Sequence record: OZ346151.1
Reading direction: 5' to 3' (one strand)
Origin: a phage
DNA: 64,000 bases
The position numbers were made by a program, and so were the translations under genes. Below, piece by piece: positions 12,341-24,580 of the stretch (within the stretch, counting starts at the first letter, position 1; every line of letters starts with the position of its first letter). Below the pieces are notes generated by a model that saw only the letters and a program-made list of their open reading frames with translations, had not been told where the DNA came from and did not search any database.

Positions 12341-12586
12341 ATGAACAAAGGGTGGACATTTGTAGACGGCGTTAAAAACATGCCTCTAGGAAAGTATATT
12401 GTAGCCATGGCAGATGAGAATGGCAAGGTTGATTTCGGAGTTTGCGAGGTTGTTCTTGCAGGATCTGGTGACTATGCTCACAAAACTGGGATAATTAACG
12501 GTCATTTCTACTTTGATTACAACCCTGTTGTGGCGTATATGGCTATGCCAGAGTTCGAGCTCCCAAAGGAAGGTGCAGATGTTTAA
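12341..12586 (+). CDS. hypothetical protein
   Basis: SD AGGAGA before ATG. Confidence 0.5.
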   Translation: MNKGWTFVDGVKNMPLGKYIVAMADENGKVDFGVCEVVLAGSGDYAHKTGIINGHFYFDYNPVVAYMAMPEFELPKEGADV

Positions 12587-12776
12587 GCTTAAATCTGCAT
12601 GGAACATCGCTGTGGGGGACGAGATCCGTATCCCAGGTGGAAAGACCATTATGAAAATATCTCGTATCGAGTACGAAGGTGATCGTGTATTTCATATCTT
12701 TGCAGAAGATGGTCGAGAGATTTATATACAGGTAGGATCTCACATCTATATTCGTAAGAAAGGGGAGGACAAATGA
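12579..12776 (+). CDS. hypothetical protein
   Basis: SD AAGGAAGGTG before ATG 12579. Confidence 0.45.
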   Translation: MFKLKSAWNIAVGDEIRIPGGKTIMKISRIEYEGDRVFHIFAEDGREIYIQVGSHIYIRKKGEDK

Positions 12777-13102
12777 CAGAGATCATCATTTCAACTGCAG
12801 GGTATGTATTCCTGACAATCATTGCACTGGCTATTTTGGTGACAGTGTATGGGTTTGTTATCCTTCCTATCCTTGAGACATTTAGTTTGTGTCGGTGTTG
12901 GAGAAAAGCTTACGGTCCACAACCATGGAAGGACTGGCCCCACCTGGTGCGCTTAGCGTTCTCTTATGCTTACGATCACTCCAGTAGTGCATGCATAACC
13001 GGATACCACGCCCACAACTGGAGCTGGGAAGGGTTGAGGAAATGGAATGTTACAAAGACCATACCTCTGCGCATGTACAAACCTAAAAACAAAGACAACT
13101 GA
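12773..13102 (+). CDS. hypothetical membrane protein
   Basis: SD GGGGAGGA; N-terminal hydrophobic helix. Confidence 0.5.
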   Translation: MTEIIISTAGYVFLTIIALAILVTVYGFVILPILETFSLCRCWRKAYGPQPWKDWPHLVRLAFSYAYDHSSSACITGYHAHNWSWEGLRKWNVTKTIPLRMYKPKNKDN

Positions 13103-14280
13103 TACTTGAAAATTCCTGGCATATCAAGTATAAGGGGGATTTCTAAAATGGATTTCCTCCTTTTGATATTTCACCGGGCTGGATATTTTAAAATTCTTAG
13201 AAAATCAGAAAATGGATCGAAAACTAAAATGGATTTTTCAGAGTAGGCGCGACAAGCTGAATAACTCATCCTATCGTTTGCACCATATTCCAGGCCACCA
13301 TTATAGATTTCCCACACATGCTAACCTCTCCCTACTAGAACTTCCTCCACTTACCCTTGACCTTCTATGGTAACAATCTAACCGCTATCTTGAAGTTGCG
13401 GTGCAGCTTTCCAGGTACTCGATCTACTTTTCATTTCAGGGCTTGGATTTTCTGAAAATTTTTCTCGATAAATTTCTCAGTACTCGATCTGTTTTTCGTT
13501 TTCTGAATCGGATTTTCTGGAAATCGTTCCGGCTCTCAACCTGAAATTTTTGGGGACGAAATCGATTTTTCGTTTTCAGAAATGGATTTTTAAAATTTCT
13601 ATATGGGAATATTTTAGTGGATACTGTTTTATAGGAAATTGTTACGGAGGGTAATTAGCATGCTAATTAAATTTATTAAATGCGAGGAGTTCTCATTTAG
13701 AATTTTGAATGATAATCATTCTCGTTTGCAGAATAACGGGCAGGCCCGGTGATTGTCTCCCGGCCCCTGTTGCCCCGGCTTGTTATTATAGTATCACACA
13801 GGACAAAGAAAGCAAGGACTTTTTGCATAAATTTTTAAATGATAATGATAACCGTTCTCATTTTATGCAGCGCCCATCCCCGGTGGTTGTCTCCCCCGTC
13901 ACCGGTGCCTGCCGTCCTTTCGATATGTATATTGTGCCACCTGGCGGGGCCGCTGTCAACACTTTTCAAAAAATTTTTCTAACCTGGTGCGCTAACCGTT
14001 GCAACCTGGCGGGGCCAGCCTGGCAGGACCTAACTGACCAGGTAGGGGAGAATGAAGGCTTGTAAACCTGGTGGGCCTATGCTACAGGATAGGTAACAAT
14101 TGAAGAGGAGGTACAAAAATGATATGATCCCCCTGGAAAATGTAGCTATTAATGACTCTGAGGCTATCGCCCTGGTTGAAAAGGCTATGGCGGGAGCGTT
14201 GGAACATAAAGAAGAGTACGAAAATGGTGGTTAACCTGGCGGGGGCGGCAGGTGGATTCTATCATAAAAATAATTTAAAA
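13103..14280. repeat. non-coding repeat-rich region (AATGGATTTT-type repeats, ~45-bp direct repeat, ACCTGGCGGGGCC repeats)
   Basis: No RBS-supported ORF; multiple short direct repeats seen by eye. Confidence 0.6.
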
Positions 14281-14286
14281 TAGTAG

Positions 14287-14315
14287 TTGACAACAAGGTT
14301 AATCATGGTATTATT
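14287..14315 (+). promoter_or_regulatory. sigma70-like promoter
   Basis: TTGACA, 17-bp spacer, ATTATT. Confidence 0.5.
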
Positions 14316-14364
14316 ACCCTACAAGGTGAACAACACCGCACTAACCAGTAAAGAGGATAAATTT

Positions 14365-14562
14365 ATGAACGCATACGGGATCAAAGTACGTCGCAACACT
14401 CGCCAGGTGGTCACCAATCAAGTGATTTGCCGGGTGGATGTAACCATCAACAACGGGCAAGGCCTTTATAAATTTCGTCGCGGTCATAGCTATACCCTGC
14501 AACAGCTTAATCGTTGCGCCCTGACAAAAGGTCAGATCAACCACTGGTTTAATAAAAAATAA
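14365..14562 (+). CDS. hypothetical small protein
   Basis: SD AAGAGGAT before ATG 14365. Confidence 0.5.
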   Translation: MNAYGIKVRRNTRQVVTNQVICRVDVTINNGQGLYKFRRGHSYTLQQLNRCALTKGQINHWFNKK

Positions 14563-14565
14563 GTA

Positions 14566-14594
14566 TTGACATACAGTCAGACACCAAATACACT
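14566..14594 (+). promoter_or_regulatory. sigma70-like promoter
   Basis: TTGACA, 17-bp spacer, TACACT. Confidence 0.5.
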
Positions 14595-14626
14595 AAAAGC
14601 ACAAAAGACACTAAGAGGATAAAATC

Positions 14627-14812
14627 ATGAAAACCACTACCTTTAATTTTGATAATGCAGACTTTTCTTTTTCTGATGTCAAGAACTGCCGCCGTGATCG
14701 TGGATTTTACAAGGCTTATAATCTGGTGGGCCTGGACGATGACAATAATTTGCACGAAGTAGCTGAGATCCAGCTTGACAGATTGGACGGGAAAGTACTA
14801 AAAACTTATTGA
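14627..14812 (+). CDS. hypothetical small protein
   Basis: SD AAGAGGAT before ATG. Confidence 0.5.
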   Translation: MKTTTFNFDNADFSFSDVKNCRRDRGFYKAYNLVGLDDDNNLHEVAEIQLDRLDGKVLKTY

Positions 14813-14813
14813 G

Positions 14814-14859
14814 TTTATTTTTAGATGGCCTTGACACCAGGGCCATCAATAAAGTAAAC
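14814..14859 (+). promoter_or_regulatory. 45-bp repeated promoter/operator element, copy 1
   Basis: TTATTTTTAGATGGCCTTGACACCAGGGCCATCAATAAAGTAAAC; dyad GATGGCC/GGCCATC flanking an embedded TTGACA. Confidence 0.55.
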
Positions 14860-14892
14860 TAACCACAGTTGAGCGGAAAAGGAGGCTTAAAG

Positions 14893-15012
14893 ATGAGCAC
14901 TACACGCCAGCACACAAAGGTAACCATCATCGTTTGCATCATTGGGTACATCCTGGCGCAAATGTTGATGGGTAGCGCCAACGGTGTCGCAAAATTTTTC
15001 TTAAACTTTTAA
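14893..15012 (+). CDS. small hydrophobic peptide (39 aa)
   Basis: SD AAAGGAGG before ATG; predicted single TM segment IIVCIIGYILAQMLMG. Confidence 0.45.
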   Translation: MSTTRQHTKVTIIVCIIGYILAQMLMGSANGVAKFFLNF

Positions 15013-15040
15013 TTGACAAGCTAACTTAAATCGATATAAT
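15013..15040 (+). promoter_or_regulatory. sigma70 consensus promoter
   Basis: TTGACA, 16-bp spacer, TATAAT; leader hairpin GGGAAAACTTCCC follows. Confidence 0.6.
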
Positions 15041-15091
15041 AAGCACATAAACGGGAAAACTTCCCAGAACACACAAAAGGAGAAAAACACC

Positions 15092-15433
15092 ATGACTACT
15101 ATGACCGCCTCAGAAAAAGCTATGCAGATCGCTGAACTGAAAAAACAGATCGCAGACCTTGAGAATAAGATCGATAACTTTGAAATCGACGAGGACAAGT
15201 ACGACGAAAACTATGATGAATGGTTAGACGAGATCTACGGCGAAATTATGATCGGAAACATTTCTTTTCTTCCGTCGCGTATCCTCAAGGAGCTAGATCC
15301 TATCGCTTACCGCTGCGGATTTAGCGACTACATCGACAGCCTGGATATTGAGGACGATGAAGAATACCAGGAATTACAGACAGAGTTAGAAGAAGCAAAA
15401 GAAGAGCTTGCGGAGCTGGAAGAAAACGAGTAA
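15092..15433 (+). CDS. hypothetical acidic protein
   Basis: SD AAAGGAG; strongly acidic, predicted helical. Confidence 0.55.
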   Translation: MTTMTASEKAMQIAELKKQIADLENKIDNFEIDEDKYDENYDEWLDEIYGEIMIGNISFLPSRILKELDPIAYRCGFSDYIDSLDIEDDEEYQELQTELEEAKEELAELEENE

Positions 15434-15480
15434 GCTTATTTTTAGATGGCCTTGACACCAGGGCCATCAATAAAGTAAAC
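15434..15480 (+). promoter_or_regulatory. 45-bp repeated promoter/operator element, copy 2
   Basis: Identical to copy 1. Confidence 0.55.
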
Positions 15481-15522
15481 TTTATACTGTTAACACTGAA
15501 CTAATGCATAGGAGTTAAAACC

Positions 15523-15768
15523 ATGGCAGCACTAATCACCAAATATTATGCCCCTACCAACACCAAAAGCGCCCGTATCATGGTAAAAGGCTTCGGACGT
15601 AAAAAGGTGTACACCTGGGATTATGCCTTAGACACGGAAGACAACTACACCAACGCAATGACCGATTTTATTAATGAACTAAATAAGCAGATCTTGACAA
15701 GTTATAAAGTGACCGATATTGCTTATATAGGTGAAGGCGGGATCTGTTTTGTAGGCATTGTGAAATAG
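15523..15768 (+). CDS. hypothetical protein
   Basis: SD AGGAG before ATG. Confidence 0.5.
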   Translation: MAALITKYYAPTNTKSARIMVKGFGRKKVYTWDYALDTEDNYTNAMTDFINELNKQILTSYKVTDIAYIGEGGICFVGIVK

Positions 15769-15769
15769 T

Positions 15770-15815
15770 TATTTTTTCGGTGGTCCTGGTTGCAGGGCCA
15801 TCTATAAAGATAATT
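15770..15815 (+). promoter_or_regulatory. diverged copy of repeated promoter/operator element
   Basis: TTATTTTTTCGGTGGTCCTGGTTGCAGGGCCATCTATAAAGATAA resembles the 45-bp element. Confidence 0.35.
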
Positions 15816-15842
15816 TATTAACACCATGAAAGGAGAAAGTAC

Positions 15843-16196
15843 ATGATCAGCGGGGCAAGTTTTATTATTGGCGCTATTGCTACGGCTTTAATTGTAAATA
15901 AGATCCAGGATAAAAAGGAAAGAGGAAGTACCGCCCTTGCAGAATATCCATTTTGGGCATTCAACGATAACGAAGATTATATTATAAAGTATAAAAATAA
16001 AGAAGGTGACCAAGTAACACCGCGACCGATCCCGGCTTACAAAATGCAGGAAACACTATACCGCCTGGAGGCGGGTGGCGCAAAAATTGTAGACTTTTGG
16101 GGATACGACCACACAGATCAGGAAGTTATAAAGCGCCGTATCCGGGCTATTCAGGCCAATATTGAAGTTAGCAAGGGGGGAATATATGAAAATTAA
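15843..16196 (+). CDS. hypothetical protein with N-terminal TM helix
   Basis: SD AAAGGAGAAAG before ATG. Confidence 0.5.
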   Translation: MISGASFIIGAIATALIVNKIQDKKERGSTALAEYPFWAFNDNEDYIIKYKNKEGDQVTPRPIPAYKMQETLYRLEAGGAKIVDFWGYDHTDQEVIKRRIRAIQANIEVSKGGIYEN

Positions 16197-16383
16197 TTTC
16201 GAGAAAATTGTAAAGCGCCCTCATGATTCCGAAGAGCTGCCAGAACGCCGCCAGCGTAACAATAAACTGAATAAGCCAAAAAGGTTTGGGAAGATCTGGC
16301 GTAATCATTATGATCGTAAATTGCCCGGCCTACTTTTGGAACGTGAACGACAGGCAGAACGATACCGCCATAAAGACAAATAA
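16186..16383 (+). CDS. hypothetical highly basic small protein
   Basis: SD AAGGGGGG before ATG 16186; K/R-rich. Confidence 0.4.
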   Translation: MKINFEKIVKRPHDSEELPERRQRNNKLNKPKRFGKIWRNHYDRKLPGLLLERERQAERYRHKDK

Positions 16384-16391
16384 CAACCAAC

Positions 16392-16420
16392 GCCCCGCCA
16401 TTGTGCGGGGCTTTTTATTT
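16392..16420 (+). terminator. rho-independent terminator
   Basis: GCCCCGC-CATTGT-GCGGGGC then TTTTTATTT. Confidence 0.65.
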
Positions 16421-16540
16421 CTATCCTACGAATAGCGCCCCTGGTTGGCCCTGTAAGCGCCAAAAAGGCCCCCACCTATGCAATCGCCCCTTTAACCTGA
16501 AAACATCGCCCAGGGCCGTTTCATGGCGTTAAAAATATCA

Positions 16541-16568
16541 TTGACATCGTCAACAGGTTAGCTATACT
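16541..16568 (+). promoter_or_regulatory. sigma70-like promoter
   Basis: TTGACA, 16-bp spacer, TATACT. Confidence 0.55.
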
Positions 16569-16600
16569 AACCACATCAAAGAGAGAAAGGAGTAAACGCC

Positions 16601-16861
16601 ATGCGTAAATTAAAAAATTTTGATAAAGTTGATGTTATCCTGAATAATTTTTACTACTGCAACAACAAGGCTATTTGGTGGCGTGATAGTTCCACCGATA
16701 AAGTCAGGGCGCGCTTTCTTCAGGGGCACTGGCAAGGCCGCCCAGTGATTAAAATCATGGGGCAATCGGTAGCGTTTAAAAATTGCCGCCGTGTTGATGA
16801 CGTTGAGGAGATTTTAAACATTTTGCGCCACAATAATTTAAAAAATAGTGTTGACAAGTAA
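16601..16861 (+). CDS. hypothetical protein
   Basis: SD AAAGGAG before ATG. Confidence 0.5.
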   Translation: MRKLKNFDKVDVILNNFYYCNNKAIWWRDSSTDKVRARFLQGHWQGRPVIKIMGQSVAFKNCRRVDDVEEILNILRHNNLKNSVDK

Positions 16862-16878
16862 GCCTCAATAAGTATACT
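16851..16878 (+). promoter_or_regulatory. sigma70-like promoter
   Basis: TTGACA, 16-bp spacer, TATACT; leader hairpin GGCGGGAAAACTTCCCGCC (16888-16906). Confidence 0.55.
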
Positions 16879-16935
16879 TAAACACACAGGCGGGAAAACT
16901 TCCCGCCACTAACAAAGAAAATAGGAGAAAATATC

Positions 16936-17559
16936 ATGACCACCGTTAACATTACCGCAGGTTACAATTTATCTTTCGACGTGCTGACCGACGAACAAAA
17001 AGAAAAAGCCGTTGAAATGGTCCGCGAAAGAGAAGAACACAGCGGGGATAACTTTTTTGCAGAAAGTGTAATTGAATACTATAAAGAATATGTTTTTCCA
17101 GAGTATGGCCTTGAAGATACCGAAGTACATTGGTCAGGCTTTTGGTGCCAGGGTGACGGCGCGTCAATCAGTGCTGAAAACGTGGATTTAGAAAAATTTT
17201 TACGTAAAGTAAAGGCCCTGACCAAGTTCCGATCAATTCGTCACTTGTTCGGCACAATGCACGATGGCGAGTTATCAGCCAGTGTTGAACGCGACAAGTA
17301 CAGCCATTACAGCCATGAAAACACTGTAAGCGGGTACATTGATACCACTTGGCTAGATCTGACCGCCAAACAAGAAAACAAAGTGGAAGACCTGGAAGAA
17401 CTGATCACCGAGACGGTACGGGAGCTATCCCGCAAGGTTTACGTAGACCTGGAGGAGGCCTATCTAGAACAGTTCACCGCAGAAAACCTGATCGGCCTTA
17501 TCGAGGCCAATGATTGGCGGTTTGATGTCGATGAATATGGTGAGATGACTTTTTCATAA
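16936..17559 (+). CDS. hypothetical protein
   Basis: SD AGGAGAA before ATG; 207 aa. Confidence 0.55.
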   Translation: MTTVNITAGYNLSFDVLTDEQKEKAVEMVREREEHSGDNFFAESVIEYYKEYVFPEYGLEDTEVHWSGFWCQGDGASISAENVDLEKFLRKVKALTKFRSIRHLFGTMHDGELSASVERDKYSHYSHENTVSGYIDTTWLDLTAKQENKVEDLEELITETVRELSRKVYVDLEEAYLEQFTAENLIGLIEANDWRFDVDEYGEMTFS

Positions 17560-17567
17560 ATAAAGTG

Positions 17568-17595
17568 TTGCAATAACCTAAAAACCTGCTATATT
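17568..17595 (+). promoter_or_regulatory. sigma70-like promoter
   Basis: TTGCAA, 16-bp spacer, TATATT; leader hairpin 17605-17624. Confidence 0.5.
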
Positions 17596-17649
17596 AAAAC
17601 TCAAGGGGGCAAGACGTTTGCCCCAACACAAAACAAAGAGGATAACATC

Positions 17650-18030
17650 ATGAAAAACACTACCAAGGCTATTGACACCGTTATGTTTAACCTGGTTACA
17701 TTCCGTGAAGATATGAAAGATCTTCCTCGTGAAACAGTGTGCGACCATATCGAAAACTATCGCAAACTAATCAAAGAGTTGCCTTTAAAACGTGATCAAT
17801 ATGCGGCTAACGCCATGCTTAATGCCATGATCAAAAAGATGATCCAGTGTGATTTAACCCTGGCCTATGATTATGCAGGCGGTCGTTTTGCAGTATACAA
17901 TCAGCCCGTGCCCGGTATGAGCACCACCGAAGAATTGCACGCGCTCAATCTAAAACAAGACGTGTGGGATAGTATGCCTCGCGTGGTGGTATGGGTAGAA
18001 AGCGGAAAGATTTACGGCGATAATTTTTAA
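17650..18030 (+). CDS. hypothetical protein
   Basis: SD AAGAGGA before ATG. Confidence 0.55.
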   Translation: MKNTTKAIDTVMFNLVTFREDMKDLPRETVCDHIENYRKLIKELPLKRDQYAANAMLNAMIKKMIQCDLTLAYDYAGGRFAVYNQPVPGMSTTEELHALNLKQDVWDSMPRVVVWVESGKIYGDNF

Positions 18031-18039
18031 TCAGGTAGC

Positions 18040-18066
18040 AGGCGGCATATTTGCCGCCTTATTGTT
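18040..18066 (+). terminator. putative rho-independent terminator
   Basis: AGGCGGCATATTTGCCGCCT then TATTGTT. Confidence 0.5.
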
Positions 18067-18094
18067 AATCAGAACTGTAAAAGAGGTACATAGA

Positions 18095-18466
18095 ATGGAA
18101 TTTATTATTTTGGCTGTATTGGTTGCCTTGTTTAACGCCTGGATCGCTGGCAAGATGGGAAGATCCGCCTTTTTATGGTTTATTATATCTATTTTCCTGG
18201 GGGTGGTTGCAACTATTGTATTGGTTATCCTTGCAATTGTTGACAAGGGGAATAATAGAAAGGGTAAAGTATTTTCAGACCTGTACGACGCTCAAACGTT
18301 TGTCAACGCCTATTATAGTGATCTTCCAGTCTCCCTACGTTGCAGCCTTGCACAACAGGTTTTCGATGAAGCTAAAACCAGAGATCACGCCCATGAGATT
18401 TGTTTAACTGAGGCGGATCGCCTATTTGAGAGGAATAGAAAATATGTGGACCAGCCGTTTAAATAA
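18095..18466 (+). CDS. hypothetical membrane protein
   Basis: SD AAGAGG before ATG 18095; two predicted N-terminal TM helices. Confidence 0.5.
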   Translation: MEFIILAVLVALFNAWIAGKMGRSAFLWFIISIFLGVVATIVLVILAIVDKGNNRKGKVFSDLYDAQTFVNAYYSDLPVSLRCSLAQQVFDEAKTRDHAHEICLTEADRLFERNRKYVDQPFK

Positions 18467-18576
18467 TGCCACGTTAATTAACCCCTTTAGTAAAGATTTG
18501 AAGCCAGCCGCCTGGCGGGATGGATTCAATAACGAACGCTTTATTTTCAGGCCTGATCTTGAGGAATTTTATAACA

Positions 18577-18804
18577 ATGGATCGAACAACAGCGGAGATA
18601 ATTTTTCTTGTGGTGTGTGTCGTGATAGGACTCCTGGGGGCCATTGTAGATCGCGTCACTACTACCAGAAGGAAAGGGGAGACGATGACAACCAAGGATA
18701 AGCCCCGCACCGATAAGGTGCGCCGTGTTATGGTATGGCTTGAGATCATCGCCCTTGAAATATTGTTAGGCGTAGGGATGTATTTTATCTCTGTAAGTAA
18801 CTGA
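18577..18804 (+). CDS. hypothetical small membrane protein (alternative: 18444-18701 in another frame)
   Basis: Hydrophobic segments; ends just before terminator; frame choice uncertain. Confidence 0.35.
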   Translation: MDRTTAEIIFLVVCVVIGLLGAIVDRVTTTRRKGETMTTKDKPRTDKVRRVMVWLEIIALEILLGVGMYFISVSN

Positions 18805-18808
18805 TAAC

Positions 18809-18840
18809 GGCCCCCGATCCCTGGGGGGCCTAACTTTTTT
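18809..18840 (+). terminator. rho-independent terminator
   Basis: GGCCCCC-GATCCCT-GGGGGCC then TAACTTTTTT. Confidence 0.6.
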
Positions 18841-18863
18841 CAAAAAATTTTTCTTCCGGGGTG

Positions 18864-18891
18864 TTGCAATCCGGTCCTGAATATGGATAAT
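18864..18891 (+). promoter_or_regulatory. sigma70-like promoter
   Basis: TTGCAA, 16-bp spacer, GATAAT; leader hairpin GGGGAAACATCCCC. Confidence 0.5.
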
Positions 18892-18947
18892 AACAATCAA
18901 CGGGGAAACATCCCCACCAACACAAAAACCAGAAAGGAGAAACAAAA

Positions 18948-19148
18948 ATGAGCAACAATATCCGCGTTATTAACTTCAAAAAAGAAGAAAAAATTGCCGT
19001 GCTGATTGACGGTCAAGAAATCTTCAAGGGCGACTATGAAGATCATCAAACGGCGATTAGTATCACTCGCGTGATTGGTTACCATAATTTTTACCCCCAA
19101 GGCGCTGAGGCGGCGGTTAAACGAATCAAAGAGATTGTAGGCCTGTAA
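18948..19148 (+). CDS. hypothetical small protein
   Basis: SD AAAGGAG before ATG. Confidence 0.5.
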   Translation: MSNNIRVINFKKEEKIAVLIDGQEIFKGDYEDHQTAISITRVIGYHNFYPQGAEAAVKRIKEIVGL

Positions 19149-19150
19149 AA

Positions 19151-19196
19151 TTTATTTTTAGATGGCCTTGACTCTAGGGCCATCAATAAAGTAAAT
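19151..19196 (+). promoter_or_regulatory. 45-bp repeated promoter/operator element, copy 3
   Basis: Same element with TTGACT variant. Confidence 0.5.
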
Positions 19197-19241
19197 TTAA
19201 ACCCTGTTAAAATACCACGCAGTTAACAAGGAGTAATGATC

Positions 19242-19541
19242 ATGTTTATCCAGGCTAATAATCTTTATTTCTTTGATGGTCAGATCGTAGATGGTGTGGA
19301 AGTGGAGATCACTGGGTGCCCTGGTGGTCAGGCTATGACTTTTCGGAATAATGCCTTTGATGATTCTCATATCGTTATGAGAATGGAAGTTACAAAGCTG
19401 GACGACAAGAAAACGCTCATTGACTATTCCGTGAAAGATCATCCAGACTACCACATGATCTATGGTGATTTGTGCATTGTTGACCGTGACAAGGTGGGCG
19501 GCATTGTGATCGCTATTGTGAACGATGTTTTCTCTGTATAG
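19242..19541 (+). CDS. hypothetical protein
   Basis: SD AAGGAG 8 nt before ATG 19242. Confidence 0.5.
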   Translation: MFIQANNLYFFDGQIVDGVEVEITGCPGGQAMTFRNNAFDDSHIVMRMEVTKLDDKKTLIDYSVKDHPDYHMIYGDLCIVDRDKVGGIVIAIVNDVFSV

Positions 19542-19599
19542 TTCCGGCAAATGATGCAAAATAAGGCCCCTAGCAGGGCCTACAGCGATATAATCACAT

Positions 19600-19633
19600 A
19601 AAGGCCATGCAACCGCATGGCCTTTATTATTTT
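19600..19633 (+). terminator. rho-independent terminator
   Basis: AAAGGCCATGC-AACC-GCATGGCCTTT then ATTATTTT. Confidence 0.6.
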
Positions 19634-19680
19634 GGCGTTACAGCGGCCCCAAGGCGCTTAAAAATTTTTTAAAGAAGTAC

Positions 19681-19708
19681 TTGCATCAAGCCCTACAATA
19701 TGGATAAT
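19681..19708 (+). promoter_or_regulatory. sigma70-like promoter
   Basis: TTGCAT, 16-bp spacer, GATAAT. Confidence 0.5.
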
Positions 19709-19766
19709 AGGACGTGTCAGGGGGGGGAGGCCCCAATCATTAACCGGATAGATAGGAGTTAAAACC

Positions 19767-20051
19767 ATGGCTATTGTTACCGCTGGCGATGTAGTAGAAA
19801 TGGAAGCAAAATACTTAAAAGCGGGTATGCATATCCTACGCAACGATCTTGAACTGGTCCTGACAATGGTTGACTATAACCCAGGGCAAGATTATCCAAG
19901 TGTTGACTACTTTTTTGAGTATGTTGATGAAGAGTTGAAAGAGGATGAGGCCTATTGCGGTGAGTTCTGCAACTTCTTTTGTCCTGATGAGGTTGTAAAG
20001 GTTATCTATCAACCTGGCGTAGCTTTCCCGCTGCACGCTATCAATAAATAA
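19767..20051 (+). CDS. hypothetical protein
   Basis: SD AGGAG before ATG. Confidence 0.5.
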   Translation: MAIVTAGDVVEMEAKYLKAGMHILRNDLELVLTMVDYNPGQDYPSVDYFFEYVDEELKEDEAYCGEFCNFFCPDEVVKVIYQPGVAFPLHAINK

Positions 20052-20055
20052 ACCT

Positions 20056-20080
20056 GGCGGGGGCCTTTTCGGCCCCCGCC
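20056..20080 (+). terminator. GC-rich perfect hairpin (terminator-like, no clear U-tract)
   Basis: GGCGGGGGCC-TTTTC-GGCCCCCGCC. Confidence 0.4.
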
Positions 20081-20114
20081 TGAAATTATGAAAAATAAAA
20101 AGAGGCAAACTATC

Positions 20115-20348
20115 ATGATGGAACAAATTAAACGCGCTGAGGCTATTAATGGCAATGTAATCTATTTTGTCAGCAAAAACGAAAAAGGCGTACCCTATGC
20201 GGCGGTAATAGTACAGCCTGACGGCGATTATTGGTGCACTGTGTACGGCGCTTATTCTTTTGGGCGTCCAGTGCATGATAAAATTTTGAAAGTAGCGAAC
20301 CCTACCGGGAAAAATATTACAGCAGAAAAATTTTTTGAAAAAAGTTGA
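20115..20348 (+). CDS. hypothetical protein
   Basis: SD AAGAGG 9 nt before ATG 20115. Confidence 0.5.
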   Translation: MMEQIKRAEAINGNVIYFVSKNEKGVPYAAVIVQPDGDYWCTVYGAYSFGRPVHDKILKVANPTGKNITAEKFFEKS

Positions 20349-20375
20349 CATGACCATATAAAACTGTAGTATATA
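20345..20375 (+). promoter_or_regulatory. sigma70-like promoter
   Basis: TTGACA, ~17-bp spacer, TAGTAT/TATATA; leader hairpin 20383-20398. Confidence 0.5.
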
Positions 20376-20424
20376 AATCAAAGGGGGCAACAAGCCCCAC
20401 CAACCACAAAGAGGATAAAAAATC

Positions 20425-20604
20425 ATGGCTATTATTGCAAAGACCGAGATCGTAGGCTTAGATTCTATTCTCCTCGCATATGAGGAAGCTATAGAAATGT
20501 ATGTGGTTTCCTATGGTGAGTATATCCGTGAATATGAATCTATTGATCTAGCTTTTGAATGTTATATTCGCCAGGTTAATAAAGCGTACGATGATTATCG
20601 TTAA
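20425..20604 (+). CDS. hypothetical small protein (59 aa)
   Basis: SD AAGAGGAT before ATG 20425; below the 60-aa ORF-track threshold. Confidence 0.45.
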   Translation: MAIIAKTEIVGLDSILLAYEEAIEMYVVSYGEYIREYESIDLAFECYIRQVNKAYDDYR

Positions 20605-20610
20605 AATAGT

Positions 20611-20643
20611 TTGACAACAAACAACCATCTAACAAAGCATAAT
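20611..20643 (+). promoter_or_regulatory. possible promoter (weak -10)
   Basis: TTGACA at 20611; -10 assignment ambiguous; leader hairpin 20651-20671. Confidence 0.35.
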
Positions 20644-20695
20644 ACATAAGGTGGTAGAATGATCCGCCACCCGGAACAAAGAAGAGGTAAACACC

Positions 20696-20941
20696 ATGAA
20701 AAGCAATAAAGGTTATAACGGTTACAAAAACAAAACTCATTGGAATGTAAGCCTTTGGATTAATAACGATGAGTCATTGTACCGGTTGGCCCAAGGATTT
20801 ATTAACGCTAATGCTAATCGTAATGATGCGGCGCGGGATATGATGCTTTTTCTGGAGCTAACCGGACAAGATAAGACCCCGGACGGCTTCAAGTACAGCA
20901 CTACGGCGATCCGTGCCGCGATGGTTGGAATGAAACACTAA
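20696..20941 (+). CDS. hypothetical protein
   Basis: SD GAAGAGG before ATG. Confidence 0.5.
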   Translation: MKSNKGYNGYKNKTHWNVSLWINNDESLYRLAQGFINANANRNDAARDMMLFLELTGQDKTPDGFKYSTTAIRAAMVGMKH

Positions 20942-20949
20942 AAGCACAT

Positions 20950-22980
20950 AGCCGCCAGATCTCAGAATTTACGTACGCTCACCAGTCTATAGCCTGCTAA
21001 GTATTTATTCCAACCATAGAATAACGGAATAGTCAATACCTGCATAAAATAATTATTCGTGTAAACTGCATAACATAAATCGGCTAGGATGTCAACATTT
21101 TTCGTAAACAGCTCGAAATTATAACGGTGAGTTATAATAAACAGAGAAATCTTTAGTCGTCTAATGTTTACTGTACATTACTATACTGACTGGAATCATT
21201 AGATGACTAAGAGAAAGATAAGAAATCATTAACAATGCAATTGTTTTATTCGTAACAATAAGGCAACTATGCAAACGGATGGCATGGCGCGACGGAGTCG
21301 CGACATAATATAAAAGCAGTAACCATCACCCCCGTGATAGTTTGTCTGCAAACTATTAATCAGATCATAGTTGCCTTGTATTTAGTTAATCATGACATAA
21401 CAAGCAAGGCAACTATAGATCTGCTAATAGTTGCCCTGCTTTTATATTATGTCATAGATTATTAGCCTGTTAATTGTTAGTCAGTCAAATCAACAACGTT
21501 ATCATTTCAGTCTTTATTGTTGTTGATCGTTATTGTTATCATGCAAACGAATGGCATGGCTTATCATTTTTGAGTAAACAATCTATACGTGAACAGTGAG
21601 GCATGCAATAGTAAGGGCGGGAATAATGAGAGTGTAAACTGTCAAGGGTAATGTCAATTATATCAATCGTGTCAGTTATGTCACCATTATGTCAGCAGAG
21701 TTTTTCTCCTCTTTGTCAAGTGCTGCATGCCCACACAAATAGTAAGAAATATAATTGTTATGTGCGTAAACAGTAACTCATGTTATCAATCCCTGTATGT
21801 ATCGCCAGTGGTGCGCATAATGGGTATTATGTTAAATTGCCCGTAATGATAATGGTTCTCACAATGATAGGTATTCTCATTCCCCCACACAAAATAGATT
21901 GCAAATGTTGTGCCACTATGTGAACGGCCTCACCTATTAATTTGCCTCACTGCCTCGATATTTGAGAATTATCATAAGAATGAGAAGTATTCCCATTTCG
22001 TCCGCCTGGCAGCACTCCAGTCGCTACGGCTCAGAACAGGGCAGAATTGTGTCCATTCAGATATTTCTGTCTGGCTCTTCAGGTCTGTGTGGGAAAAGTC
22101 CACCTCTCTGGCGGGGCATGGGGTCATGACGGGAAAATTGCAGGTCAATTAAAAAATTTACGTGGTGTATGAAGCGCTCTTCAGGTAAGGCATGTATTAT
22201 GGGATGAAACCCTCTTCAGGCAATGATATTTGTGGGTGTGATATTTGCTGGAAAGCCAGATATGACGGGACTCCCGGCGGGGCAGGGGTAGTACAGACAG
22301 GGGAAATATGGAGGATGTGGTTAGGTGAATTGATCAGACAGGTAGAGTATGGAATATGTTACAGGTATGTTAAATAGGGCGGCTGAATATCTGTAGGATT
22401 TGTGTGTAAAATCAAAGACTTAAGTGGTGTTGTGGTATTTTCTATAAATAATTCAAGTTTAATAGGTAATATTTGTCTCTATTCGCTTTGTGTGGTAAAC
22501 AGATTCAGATGAGATTGGTTTACAAGCGTATACATAATATACAAATTAAAGATACAAGAAACCCCCCTCCCCCTTCGGCTACCATTCACCTTTTCCTCTG
22601 ACTGGTACTTAAACACTTATTCAGACTCTTCAGGTTATCACCCATATATCATATGGCAGTGACTGGTGTCCTCCGGCCCCTCTTTCGTCACCCGTCCGCT
22701 TCGCCATGCTAATGCCATAGCCAATGGTTCGGTTGTTCACCCTGTTCACTCAGGTGTATCTCCATACCCCTTCAAAACGAAGAGAACAGAAAACCCGAAT
22801 TACTCGGTAAAAGAAAAGAGAAGAACTTAATTTTATCAGGATAGGCAAGAATGTCAAGGCATGACTGCTCACTAAACAAGCAAACAGTCATGTGTGGGAG
22901 GTAAGTGATTGTGGTGGTAGGAAATTTAGTTGAAAGATGTGTTATAGGTGCTTCCAGCACTTTAGCCGGGCAGCTAATTG
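20950..22980. repeat. ~2 kb non-coding, repeat-rich zone at the convergence of the plus and minus transcription blocks
   Basis: No RBS-supported ORFs; 20-bp near-identical repeat ATGCAAACG(G/A)ATGGCATGGC at 21268 and 21540; AAGGCAACTAT/ATAGTTGCC inverted copies 21258-21440; clustered TGTCA and CTCTTCAGG repeats. Confidence 0.6.
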
Positions 22981-22984
22981 TGTG

Positions 22985-23200
22985 TCAGTCCAGCGGTTCA
23001 TCCTCTACTTCACTGAAATCAATGTTCATGGTCTCTTCCCAACCATCGATCTCAGCACAAGAGTGGAGTTCTTTAGGGTTTACTCCTAAAGCCTCAGCAA
23101 CAGAGTCTATATTTAACACCTCTGGCAGGTATGATTCATCAAATTCAAGGTAAATCAGGCCACGAGTGTTGTCAGCTCCACCAAATATTTCTATCTTCAT
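22985..23200 (-). CDS. hypothetical acidic small protein
   Basis: Strand-consistent ORF, last gene of the minus block. Confidence 0.45.
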   Translation of the reverse strand: MKIEIFGGADNTRGLIYLEFDESYLPEVLNIDSVAEALGVNPKELHSCAEIDGWEETMNIDFSEVEDEPLD

Positions 23201-23321
23201 AAAATCTCCTCTGGAAATGAGAGTGTGAACAGGGTTTTATACGTCCCAATGCACAGGAATTATGCACGTTTTCCTCTTCAGGCCATGCTTTAGCATGAGG
23301 AACCTGTGTGGGCTCGGTGCT

Positions 23322-23534
23322 TCATAGTCTACCACCTCTGAACTCTTCGTGCTCAGGCATAATAGAGAACCAGATATCTACGATGTCCTCCCACGTCAGG
23401 TCATCAGCCTCAGGATCTGTCTGGGACGAAGATGAAGAGTCCTCAGAATCTAAGTTTTCCTCTTTAACTGGCTCATCCAAGGGACATATGGTCACTCCTT
23501 CGGATGTCTCTTCAGATGCATGTGTGTTGATCAT
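23322..23534 (-). CDS. hypothetical acidic small protein
   Basis: Strand-consistent ORF. Confidence 0.45.
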   Translation of the reverse strand: MINTHASEETSEGVTICPLDEPVKEENLDSEDSSSSSQTDPEADDLTWEDIVDIWFSIMPEHEEFRGGRL

Positions 23535-23894
23535 GTTCCACCCGTGAGTATTCCGGCAACAGCTGCTATGGACGTAATGATCATCAGGATCACCACTAAA
23601 ACTTCGGACAATGTTCTCATTGTGTACTCCATATTCTACAAACTATGTGTGGATACTATCACTGGATCGGTAATGTGTCAACAGAAACGCCGCGAGGGTT
23701 TGGTTAAAATCCGAGCGTATGGTGATTTGGGTCAAAACGGACGTGCGTTCTCGCTACGCTCGAAAGAGAGATTTGTTTGTAGGAAGCTCTTAAACGCTCT
23801 GTAATGAGATTATCTGTCCAAGGTATGCAATCGTGCACCAGATAAAGAAAAGGACGCCACAGAGCGTCCTAGGTGTCTTAAATTTGATATTTTG

Positions 23895-24206
23895 CTATAC
23901 CCATGAGGGCTTATCAAGGTTGGAGTAGCTGAAAGGTGTCAAAAGGTGACTGTCAAAATCTCTCAAACTATCTAAATCTTTTTCCTCGTCCTGACACCAT
24001 CTGTGCCTACATTTATTGTTGTAGTGCATAGAATGCATAGCGTTCTGCAACTTAACAGGTACAAGTGATTCAGGAGTAGATAGTATTGTTGGGTATGCCA
24101 GAATCACCTCAAACAGTGGAAACACATCGAAACTAAAGTCTACCTCTGCAGAGGTTGATGGCATATAGGAGTATTTAGCCGCCTTTGTAGACATAATCCA
24201 CCTCAC
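23895..24206 (-). CDS. hypothetical protein
   Basis: Strand-consistent ORF. Confidence 0.5.
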   Translation of the reverse strand: MRWIMSTKAAKYSYMPSTSAEVDFSFDVFPLFEVILAYPTILSTPESLVPVKLQNAMHSMHYNNKCRHRWCQDEEKDLDSLRDFDSHLLTPFSYSNLDKPSWV

Positions 24207-24550: not shown

Positions 24551-24580
24551 GTAAAAAGAGGGGCCCAAGCCCCCCTCTTT
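24551..24580 (-). terminator. rho-independent terminator (minus strand)
   Basis: AGAGGGGGGC-TTGG-GCCCCTCT followed by TTTTT on minus strand. Confidence 0.6.

Follow-up and report, generated by a model that had tools for sequence, protein, structure and literature searches.

The window analyzed here is a stretch of 64,000 nucleotides (nt) of phage DNA (record OZ346151.1, one strand, 5′ to 3′), in which positions 14,287 to 20,941 carry an array of small genes. Our analysis indicates that this small-gene module is wired by compact composite regulatory cassettes of the promoter-early stem-loop (PeSL) type, an explanation to which, taken as a whole, we give a probability of about 0.6. Two types of cassettes were found: (i) class A, in which a sigma70 promoter is followed by a GC hairpin with its G-rich arm first, an A/C-rich leader and a strong Shine-Dalgarno sequence (SD), and (ii) class B, a 49-nt repeat named D1 whose predicted hairpin encloses the -35 hexamer. 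The association of promoters and hairpins ahead of the small genes, which is the core of this explanation, is real and far above chance.

Over its full length, the 6.65-kb region is about 94% identical to genomes of Vequintavirus (rV5-like phages), including AlexBoehm, isim and Murica, and it matches 278 phage records. Judged by this similarity, the window belongs to a Vequintavirus, i.e. an rV5-like phage of Escherichia coli, and the region is the variable small-gene module of such a phage (approximately open reading frames (ORFs) ORF196 to ORF174 in the numbering of rV5). In the complete genome of AlexBoehm (135 kb), the part that corresponds to the region (80.0-87.7 kb) belongs to a series of small hypothetical genes, downstream of rIIA/B, primase-helicase and DNA polymerase genes and on the same strand; this series is bounded by a non-coding region of about 2.5 kb that faces a convergent transcription unit. 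The ORFs of the module, designated hereafter by their start positions, are:

14365-20941, + strand: 19 small ORFs of 39-207 amino acids (aa), from the ORF list and the inspection of SD
+ strand, ORF starts: 14365, 14627, 14893, 15092, 15523, 15843, 16186, 16601, 16936 and 17650
+ strand, ORF starts (continued): 18095, 18444, 18685, 18948, 19242, 19767, 20115, 20425 and 20696

The class-A cassettes and the promoters devoid of hairpin are listed below, with the corresponding predicted promoters of rV5 (P numbers) and the z-scores of leader folding:

14287-14367, + strand: weak class-A cassette; promoter 14287-14314 (TTGACA-16-TATTAT with a TG extension), weak 4-bp hairpin 14325-14337, SD, ATG 14365; z = -0.85
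14566-14594, + strand: promoter only; TTGACA-17-TACACT, then an unstructured A-rich leader to ATG 14627; rV5 P195
15013-15094, + strand: class-A cassette; promoter 15013-15040, hairpin 15053-15065, A/C-rich leader, SD, ATG 15092; rV5 P192
16541-16568, + strand: promoter only, serving gene 16601; TTGACA-16-TATACT; chimeric when compared with IMG/VR locus L007, where two promoters correspond to it; rV5 P186
16851-16938, + strand: class-A cassette; promoter 16851-16878 with the -35 within the end of the upstream gene, 8-bp hairpin 16889-16907, ATG 16936; z = -4.5; rV5 P185
17568-17652, + strand: class-A cassette; promoter 17568-17595 (TTGCAA-16-TATATT preceded by TGc), hairpin 17605-17624, pure A/C leader, ATG 17650; z = -3.3
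18864-18950, + strand: class-A cassette; promoter 18864-18891 (TTGCAA-16-GATAAT), hairpin 18902-18915, pure A/C leader, ATG 18948; z = -2.7
19681-19769, + strand: degenerate class-A cassette; TTGCAT-16-GATAAT, 4-bp GC hairpin 19724-19734, ATG 19767
20345-20427, + strand: class-A cassette; promoter 20345-20372 with the upstream TGA stop within TTGACA, hairpin 20383-20398, pure A/C leader, ATG 20425; z = -2.75; rV5 P174
20611-20698, + strand: degenerate class-A cassette; TTGACA and CATAAT 21 nt apart (17 nt in AlexBoehm), irregular hairpin 20650-20671, ATG 20696; z = -1.95

An initial annotation made from the sequence had reported a consensus promoter at 15013-15040 and GC hairpins directly after the predicted starts at five sites. 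All of them were recovered: TTGACA-16-TATAAT matches the consensus at 12/12 positions, and the five hairpins are located where they had been announced (the second one starting at 16889 instead of 16888). Five genes (15092, 16936, 17650, 18948 and 20425) carry the full class-A unit. The hairpin begins 10-12 nt past the -10 in all five and is the sole RNA structure predicted in their leaders, leaving the SD and the AUG unpaired (z between -1.7 and -4.5); these hairpins have 5-8 bp, with the G-rich arm first. The stop codon of the upstream gene, carried by the A/T-rich stretch that precedes the -35, is found between 11 nt within the -35 region and 8 nt ahead of this region at 15013, 16851, 17568, 20345 and 20611. 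On the + strand between 14201 and 20941, nine promoter matches of at least 10/12 were detected compared to 1.24 ± 1.15 expected (300 dinucleotide shuffles, maximum 5), and four of at least 11/12 compared to 0.09 in the shuffles. When we searched both strands of the 64-kb window for the composite motif (promoter of at least 9/12, GC hairpin 8-14 nt after the -10 and SD-ATG within 50 nt), six matches were obtained, five of them inside the region, versus 0.43 ± 0.67 (maximum 2) in 60 shuffles. The “CA-rich tract” initially described does exist, the A+C content of the five leaders being 0.71-0.88; in three of them, the SD is abutted by a pure A/C run of 12 nt or more. However, pure A/C 12-mers occur 29 times in the window, so that the tract is unremarkable alone and counts only when it is taken together with the other parts of the unit.

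Whereas these core features are real, their uniformity had been overstated. About 18 genes had been said to be each preceded by a near-consensus promoter. Among the 19 ORFs, besides the five clear units, three have a degenerate class-A unit (14365, with a 4-bp stem; 19767, with TTGCAT as -35 and a 4-bp stem; 20696, with a 21-nt spacer), four lie behind D1 (14893, 15523, 15843 and 19242), two have a promoter without hairpin (14627, promoter at 14566; 16601, promoter at 16541), two are preceded by a terminator-like hairpin alone, without promoter (18095 and 20115), and three overlap a neighbouring gene (16186, 18444 and 18685).

Comparison with related phages, which had been put forward as a check of the conserved leader, was in its favour. 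The architecture is kept in related and unrelated coliphages, and the sequence of the hairpin is replaced while its place is maintained, which argues for function. In AlexBoehm, seven of the ten composite matches of the complete genome fall within 8.5 kb, in the 80.7-89.3 kb module, and the cassettes are therefore clustered in a variable region beside small ORFs of unknown function. In Justusliebigvirus ESCO32 (phi92-like), the corresponding module has the same design and is more regular than that of the window: about 14-16 small genes within 10 kb are preceded by units made of TTGACA-16/17-TAnnnT, ..CACATAG, a hairpin (GGCGGGAAATGGTTTCCCGCC, GGGCGGCAATAGTGCCGCTC or GCGGGAATAGTTCCCGC, for instance) and a leader rich in A, with SD and ATG at the end. 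The composite motif was found 13 times on the coding strand of this single module of about 10 kb, and 18 times in 50 kb on both strands compared to 0.17 expected. One 85-nt cassette of ESCO32 has matches in 119 phage records, at several places in each, all of them phi92-like. The same units also precede many small genes of the jumbo phage 121Q, some of which are orthologues of genes from the window. In particular, the 126-aa gene (17650), the 20696 gene (encoding a DUF7249 protein) and their cassette type are common to phi92-like phages and to 121Q (L013, 4977-5673).

The geometry of the units is narrow. In a set of 29 unique cassettes from three lineages, the gap between the -10 and the hairpin is 9-12 nt in 25, the G-rich arm is the 5′ one in 28, and a pyrimidine-purine step (mostly C-A) is found 7-8 nt past the -10. 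If this step is taken as the predicted transcription start site (TSS), the unpaired 5′ extension would be 2-5 nt in 24 of the 29 cassettes (mode 3) and 6-8 nt in the five others. Orthologous leaders indicate, furthermore, that the class-A hairpin is under selection. Ahead of the 126-aa gene, vequintaviruses carry GGGG(G)CAAGACGTTTGCCCC(C), the length of the G and C runs being variable, and the same place is occupied by GGCGGGAAATGGTTTCCCGCC in ESCO32 and locus L010, by GGGCGGCGGAATACTTCCCCGCC in locus L008 and by ACGGGGGAAACGCTCCCGT in 121Q; one and the same gene is thus preceded, among its orthologues, by three unrelated hairpins (GGGGGCAAGACGTTTGCCCC versus GGCGGGAAATGGTTTCCCGCC versus ACGGGGGAAACGCTCCCGT). 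In the leader preceding 19767, GGGGG..CCCCC of rV5 and GGAGG..CCTCC of L007 form a compensated pair; in the one preceding 16936, a C-to-U change in L007 retains a G.U pair; and in the one preceding 18948, variation is confined to the loop. A MAFFT alignment of 28 paralogous cassettes was inconsistent with the structure, stem and loop lengths being different, and therefore a rule-based scan with shuffles and comparisons of orthologues were used.

Composite elements of this kind have been described as PeSLs in the T4-like phages RB49/phi1, T4/PST and KVP40/nt-1 (Arbiol et al. 2010, PMC2839356; Comeau et al. 2014, PMC4122927). A PeSL comprises a region rich in A/T, a promoter of sigma70 consensus, a stem-loop of the polyG-polyC type and an SD; such elements are located beside ORFans in hyperplastic regions, where they mediate indels and the formation of mini-circles (PMC2839356; PMC4122927). 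Within 65-90 nt, the class-A cassettes combine an A/T-rich stretch containing the stop codon of the upstream gene, a sigma70 promoter, a stem-loop with polyG then polyC and a leader poor in G, and their 3′ end is formed by a strong SD with the start codon. As PeSLs, they precede small ORFs of unknown function clustered in a variable module, and indels are bounded by cassettes. They differ from them in two respects. First, the best-match taxonomy is Vequintavirinae and not a T4-like phage, the relatives carrying such cassettes being Stephanstirmvirinae and Asteriusvirus and not Straboviridae. Second, the stem-loop of RB49 mostly fills the spacer separating -35 from -10 or overlaps the -10; in the units of RB49 that we inspected (..GTTGTTGACAGGGGATCACCGATCCCCTATAAT.., A/C-rich leader, GGAGAATCAAA-ATG), it is inside the promoter. 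In contrast, class-A stems begin 9-12 nt past the -10, in the transcribed leader and about 3 nt past the predicted start, and D1 overlaps the -35. Five subclasses of PeSLs were defined by the position of the stem-loop, including one that overlaps the -35 and one located downstream of the -10 (PMC2839356); neither of these two is among the common ones, and the class-A placement is listed as a minor subclass. Unlike the PeSLs of RB49/phi1, for which promoter, terminator and mini-circle assays were made (PMC2839356; PMC4122927), the present cassettes are known from sequence. At this level, they have every feature used to recognize PeSLs and differ by the commonest placement of the stem-loop and by the family of the host phage. 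We consider it highly probable that the module is an array of PeSL-type cassettes.

The second type of cassette, D1, had gone unnoticed in the initial annotation. It is a 49-nt repeat (AGTTTATTTTTAGATGGCCTTGACACCAGGGCCATCAATAAAGTAAACT) present in four copies in the module, each located at or just after a stop codon:

14812-14860, + strand: D1 copy 1; interrupted hairpin of 20 bp (-25.1 kcal/mol, z = -7.8), its upper stem and loop holding TTGACA, with TAAACT 18 nt downstream; directly after the stop of gene 14627-14812, ahead of gene 14893
15433-15481, + strand: D1 copy 2; precedes gene 15523; provides the left arm for the D1-D1 junction of phage 241Ecol014PP
15767-15815, + strand: D1 copy 3 (diverged); degenerate -35, hairpin kept via G.U changes; before gene 15843; right arm of the D1-D1 junction
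19149-19197, + strand: D1 copy 4; before gene 19242

D1 is restricted to Vequintavirus, usually with three copies per genome. The fold predicted on the + strand comprises a lower stem of 10 A-U pairs, an internal loop of 2+3 nt, an upper stem of 10 G-C pairs and a tetraloop, with energies of -21 to -25 kcal/mol (z between -5.2 and -7.8). TTGAC(N) lies in the upper stem and the loop, so the -35 is enclosed by the hairpin, and the -10-like hexamer TAAACT, identical to the -10 of the predicted rV5 promoter P194, lies in the 3′ arm. Structure statistics were obtained from 16 distinct copies in eight genomes (the window and seven relatives): 98.4% of the cells are paired, four pairs show compensatory double changes and four others G.U-only variation. 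The observed pairing and covariation were reached in none of 500 shuffles, and slid controls did not exceed 58%. Since the fold of the - strand is much weaker (-17.2 versus -25.1 kcal/mol), the predicted structure is clearly specific to the + strand.

RNase III hairpins separate the early genes of phage T7, and D1 might be a processing site of this type, which would cut read-through transcripts into monocistronic mRNAs ending in a stabilising hairpin, its promoter hexamers being secondary. D1 is indeed located between cistrons and forms, on the sense strand, an interrupted hairpin of about 20 bp, with two 10-bp stems on either side of an internal loop, by which it would resemble T7 R-sites; every copy begins right past a stop codon, the structure is strand-specific with G.U pairs and compensatory changes, copy 3 has kept the hairpin but lost the -35, and the module also encodes a homologue of T7 gp1.1. 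However, D1 has no sequence similarity to the T7 hairpins and carries in addition promoter hexamers: TTGAC and the -10-like hexamer are conserved in most copies, P194 of rV5 shares the TAAACT -10, and the hybrid D1 of 241Ecol014PP (TTGACA-17-GATAAT) is a good promoter. We therefore hold the RNase III site to be unlikely, although credible, and retain the reading of D1 as a second promoter-hairpin cassette.

Indels between the window and seven relatives, called by chaining blastn matches, revealed a role of the cassettes as recombination junctions that the initial annotation had not mentioned. First, the gene 15523-15768, located between D1 copies 2 and 3, is absent from 241Ecol014PP, which harbors a single hybrid D1 whose left half resembles copy 2 and right half copy 3. 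Second, locus L007 carries 585 nt with three additional small genes between two promoters where the window has a single one (16541-16568), whose upstream flank and -35 match the first promoter of L007 and whose -10 and leader match the second. Third, 241Ecol014PP splits from the window directly past the -35 at the 20345 cassette (position 20350) and continues with a leader 81-83% identical to Justusliebigvirus cassettes. This leader (locus L011, 8934-9019; ..CACGTAGGGCGGCAATGGTGCCGCTC..) is of the Justusliebigvirus type and precedes a different ORF, unmatched in the other loci; it is direct comparative evidence of cassette exchange between subfamilies. Fourth, rV5 has retained the leader 20611-20695, but its ORF is a different one as of the fourth codon. 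Close relatives thus differ by indels bounded by cassettes, at D1-D1, promoter-promoter, -35 and SD/ATG positions. About half of the junction ends of this small sample fall on cassette elements, which make up about 15% of the region, and this is suggestive of a bias toward cassettes. As judged by genome comparison, the repeated cassettes are points of gene deletion, insertion and exchange, including between phage subfamilies.

Other differences were found between these genomes. A 161-nt segment (14072-14232, encoding a 44-aa ORF), missing from Murica, is flanked by two copies of AACCTGGCGGGG, one at 14233 and the other, a variant, near 14065; this is a further indel between repeats. The motif AACCTGGCGGGG(G/C)C occurs at 13938, 14003, 14233 and 20051, at or just after stop codons. 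Compared to rV5 and Murica, the window lacks (i) about 690 nt inside the gene 14627-14812, leaving a chimeric 61-aa ORF joined at a 7-nt microhomology, (ii) a 364-nt gene after 19534, and (iii) about 3 kb of small genes (ORF173-164 of rV5) after 20948. An integron-like array was also considered: nothing resembling attC was apparent, no integrase-directed search being made, and the recombination observed takes place between ordinary direct repeats.

How the module works can be proposed from these elements. A class-A cassette would be read in order, from the A/T-rich stretch that holds or abuts the upstream stop codon, through the sigma70 promoter and a C-A start 7-8 nt past the -10, to the hairpin, leader, SD and AUG. 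The promoter would be recognized by unmodified host sigma70 RNA polymerase starting at C-A, and the hairpin, G-rich arm first and C-rich arm second, would begin about 3 nt into the transcript. In class B, the D1 repeat located directly past a stop codon would supply both the hairpin around the -35 and the -10-like hexamer of its 3′ arm. Each promoter would launch a short mRNA of which the hairpin is the first structure, and the open, G/U-poor leader with its SD would make translation initiation efficient whatever the cargo ORF. On transcripts reading through from upstream, hairpin and D1 would mark the end of the preceding cistron, as an attenuator, a processing site or a 3′ barrier. Finally, the repeats, 50-90 nt long, would supply the recombination machinery of the phage with homology to shuffle cargo genes. 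The initial annotation saw in this region an early module driven by host RNA polymerase, with a conserved leader. The module of sigma70-type promoters with a conserved leader architecture stands; however, promoters alone do not define an early class, because sigma70 promoters of this kind are found throughout the genome. Expression at an early stage, stabilisation of the mRNA and enhancement of translation are plausible proposals, and a part in host take-over is likewise putative.

The T7 gene 10 leader has a 5′-terminal stem-loop that stabilises its mRNA. The class-A hairpin could likewise shield the 5′ end and slow the 5′-end-dependent decay by RppH and RNase E, as reported for the 5′-terminal stem-loops of the E. 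coli mRNAs ompA and papA (according to references listed in PMC3997798). As in the leaders of ompA, papA and T7 gene 10, a short stable hairpin followed by an open ribosome-binding region would lie a few nucleotides from the 5′ end of the present transcripts; there is no sequence similarity between them, and the 5′ end is here a prediction. A predicted 5′ extension of 2-5 nt in 24 of the 29 cassettes fits a protective 5′-terminal stem-loop, for which up to about 4 unpaired nt would be expected. Overall, we put this protective role forward tentatively, as possible but somewhat less probable than not.

Several observations weigh against our explanation or against this part of it. The full unit is found at just five of the 19 genes, three further units are degenerate and the promoter at 20611 has a 21-nt spacer. 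The leader of the 126-aa gene in locus L009 has no hairpin, and neither have the 14566 and 16541 promoters; therefore, the hairpin is dispensable for expression. In some leaders of ESCO32 and 121Q, 7-8 unpaired 5′ nt are predicted, which is long for a protective stem-loop. Since the stem-loops of RB49 are inside the promoter and not at the 5′ end of the transcript, 5′ protection is not a function common to all PeSLs. A strand test on 32 unique class-A hairpins revealed no asymmetry (10 G.U versus nine A.C), so that the class-A structure may act in RNA or in DNA. Two indels are not located at cassettes, at 14765-14771 (intragenic, with a 7-nt microhomology) and at 19534-19554. Lastly, our literature search yielded no TSS, transcriptome, half-life, reporter or time-course study of rV5-like, phi92-like or 121Q-like phages.

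The initial annotation also stated that several genes end in intrinsic terminators, and this holds for the + strand at 16392, 18040, 18809 and 19598, three of these four terminators being t184, t181 and t177 of the rV5 paper:

16392-16411, + strand: canonical intrinsic terminator; 7-bp GC stem followed by TTTTTATTT
18040-18059, + strand: terminator-like hairpin; AGGCGGC..GCCGCCT followed by TATTGTT; t184 of rV5; the next gene (18095) has no promoter of its own
18809-18830, + strand: intrinsic terminator after gene 18685-18804; t181 of rV5
19598-19627, + strand: intrinsic terminator; 13-bp stem and T-rich tail; t177 of rV5
20056-20080, strand not assigned: strongest hairpin of the module; 10 GC pairs, -25.9 kcal/mol, T-rich tail on the - strand only; the next gene (20115) has no promoter

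The class-A hairpins and D1 could themselves act on transcripts of the upstream gene, as attenuators or terminators that would insulate each gene and keep expression from accumulating from one gene to the next. The discoverers of PeSLs assigned this role to their stem-loops and reported that one of them placed between a strong promoter and lacZ cut expression approximately as rrnB T1 does (Arbiol et al., PMC2839356); moreover, annotators have labelled as “terminator” D1 in Murica and cassette matches in phages Paula and ASO2A, and class-A hairpins lie at most about 60 nt from the upstream stop codon. However, class-A hairpins were ruled out as intrinsic terminators, as their 3′ flanks are A/C-rich without any U-tract and the terminator scan reports them on the - strand only, with weak T tails. 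They are also located downstream of their own predicted start, where an efficient terminator would kill the transcript of its own promoter, and the module has separate canonical terminators with U-tracts (16392, 18809 and 19598). Insulation as the main function is thus rather improbable.

A recognition site for a protein is less probable still. The hairpin or palindrome would be either an operator-like DNA site covering +1 to +25 and shutting off the module, or an RNA tag (boxB/nut-like, or target of a nuclease or translation factor). The fixed position relative to the promoter, the 5′ G-rich arm of 28/29 cassettes, the homogeneity of hairpins within a genome (GGCGGGAAATGGTTTCCCGCC precedes six genes of ESCO32) and the core GGGAA-N3-TTCCC found in three phage lineages would all fit such a site, but homogeneity is equally explained by recombination or gene conversion between cassettes. 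Furthermore, stems and loops vary between the cassettes of the window with no half-site common to all, unrelated stems occupy orthologous positions, and no candidate binding protein was found, the sole basic protein being the T7 gp1.1 homologue, of unknown function. Antitermination RNAs similar to HK022 put or lambda nut were retained only as part of this improbable reading, in which the polymerase could also be the partner: the present element is a single, short and variable hairpin, far smaller than put, and it has no conserved boxB-type loop. Rfam covariance models run on positions 12500-24000 gave no real match, the lone hit being at chance level (E = 0.97, 30 bits versus a gathering score of 94).

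That the cassettes have no expression role beyond their promoter, the hairpins hitch-hiking on a repeat that promotes recombination or spreads as a miniature mobile element, would account for the junctions, for the homologous cassettes of unrelated phage families and for the orthologous leaders devoid of hairpin, but it is very unlikely, since the maintained place of a hairpin whose sequence is replaced or compensated, the narrow spacing from the -10, the arm orientation in 28/29 cassettes and an SD that is always unpaired point to selection on structure in the transcript or promoter context.

A bolder extension of the PeSL-type explanation is that the unit is a horizontally mobile expression cassette that unrelated coliphage families exchange, namely Vequintavirinae, Stephanstirmvirinae and Asteriusvirus, and perhaps RB49-like phages. 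Its G-arm-first hairpin (core GGGAA-N3-TTCCC) would then be a site for recombination or mini-circle resolution, or for a host or phage factor, and the array would be an integrase-less system for the capture of accessory genes. We regard this extension as doubtful.

Two precedents, absent from the initial annotation, bear on the novelty of these results: the promoters of rV5 (2013) and the PeSLs of T4-like phages (2010). Kropinski et al. (2013, PMC3606486, Table S4) predicted the sigma70 promoters and terminators of rV5, the promoters as hexamers only. P174, P185, P186, P192, P194 and P195 and the terminators t177, t181 and t184 are orthologues of elements of the window; in contrast, the hairpin after the -10, the leader, D1 and the behaviour at junctions go unmentioned in that paper. 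The finding is genuine but less uniform than first described, its promoters had already been predicted and its overall logic has a published precedent. No description of the hairpin leader was found in the literature that we searched. Three points appear to be undescribed: the dominance of the form with a transcribed hairpin leader, D1, and the homologous cassettes across Vequintavirinae, Stephanstirmvirinae and Asteriusvirus. The cassettes also recall the morons of lambdoid phages, which are autonomous one-gene expression units gained or lost between relatives. However, morons are isolated insertions in the late operons of temperate phages, without a shared promoter-hairpin leader and without arrays.

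If our explanation is true, PeSL-type cassettes extend beyond T4-like phages to at least three further groups of coliphages, with units travelling between groups. It would also give a concrete mechanism for the gain, loss and exchange of small accessory genes in large virulent phages, with core operons left undisturbed; many of these accessory genes probably serve against host defences or in host take-over. It matters for annotation, several genomes now labelling these hairpins as “terminator”. Furthermore, each ORF would come with a compact, defined and, by prediction, probably very strong expression unit, useful for the mapping of early transcripts, for ORF cloning and as parts for synthetic biology. 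Caution is needed for cloning, as PeSL promoters are reported to be toxic in plasmids.

Concerning the products of the module, every one of the 19 ORFs matches a PHROG family, and annotated orthologues are present in Murica, isim, Gotham, rV5 and AlexBoehm. None of the products had initially been assigned to a family. This is nearly right, the other ORFs matching only PHROGs of unknown function, but two products can be assigned: that of 16186-16383 belongs to Pfam Phage_1_1 (PF08200; T7 gp1.1; E = 2.6e-11) and that of 20696-20941 to DUF7249 (E = 7e-13). PADLOC gave no match among the ten module proteins tested, and a PDB sequence search gave none for the two proteins searched (207 aa and 126 aa). 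Two ORFs in different frames, 18444-18701 and 18577-18804, have 125 nt in common. From the PHROG coverage, the true start of the latter is most likely ATG 18685 (39 aa, SD GGGGAG), and the protein of 18444-18701 exceeds its family by 12 aa.

Some features around the module deserve mention. The hairpins at 20056-20080 and 19564-19581 are strong and lie in the + strand module with T-rich tails on the - strand; their role may be to block transcription that reads through in antisense from the convergent unit. From 20942 to about 23000, an A/T-rich (GC 0.38) non-coding stretch between convergent transcription units, conserved in 122 records and drawn as a “non-coding” box on the rV5 map, contains a perfect 18-nt inverted repeat (21302-21319 and 21436-21453), direct repeats spaced by 60 nt (21351 and 21411) and several promoter-like sites on the - strand. 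It may be an origin, a terminus or a packaging region. Upstream of the module, positions 13103-14100 form about 1 kb without credible ORFs, 97% conserved in Murica, with iterated repeats 65-81 nt apart (core TTTCTGAAATGGATTTT; copies at 13140, 13221, 13405, 13470 and 13544) that look iteron-like. Between the - strand ORFs near 24.5 kb, a 12-bp palindromic hairpin at 24553-24580, flanked on either side by A- and T-runs (AAAGAGGGGGGCTTGGGCCCCTCTTTTT), resembles a bidirectional terminator. Lastly, about 20 GenBank records named “Campylobacter phage” (e.g. A135, A13b and C14) are 94-97% identical to the region and are probably mislabelled or contaminant assemblies.

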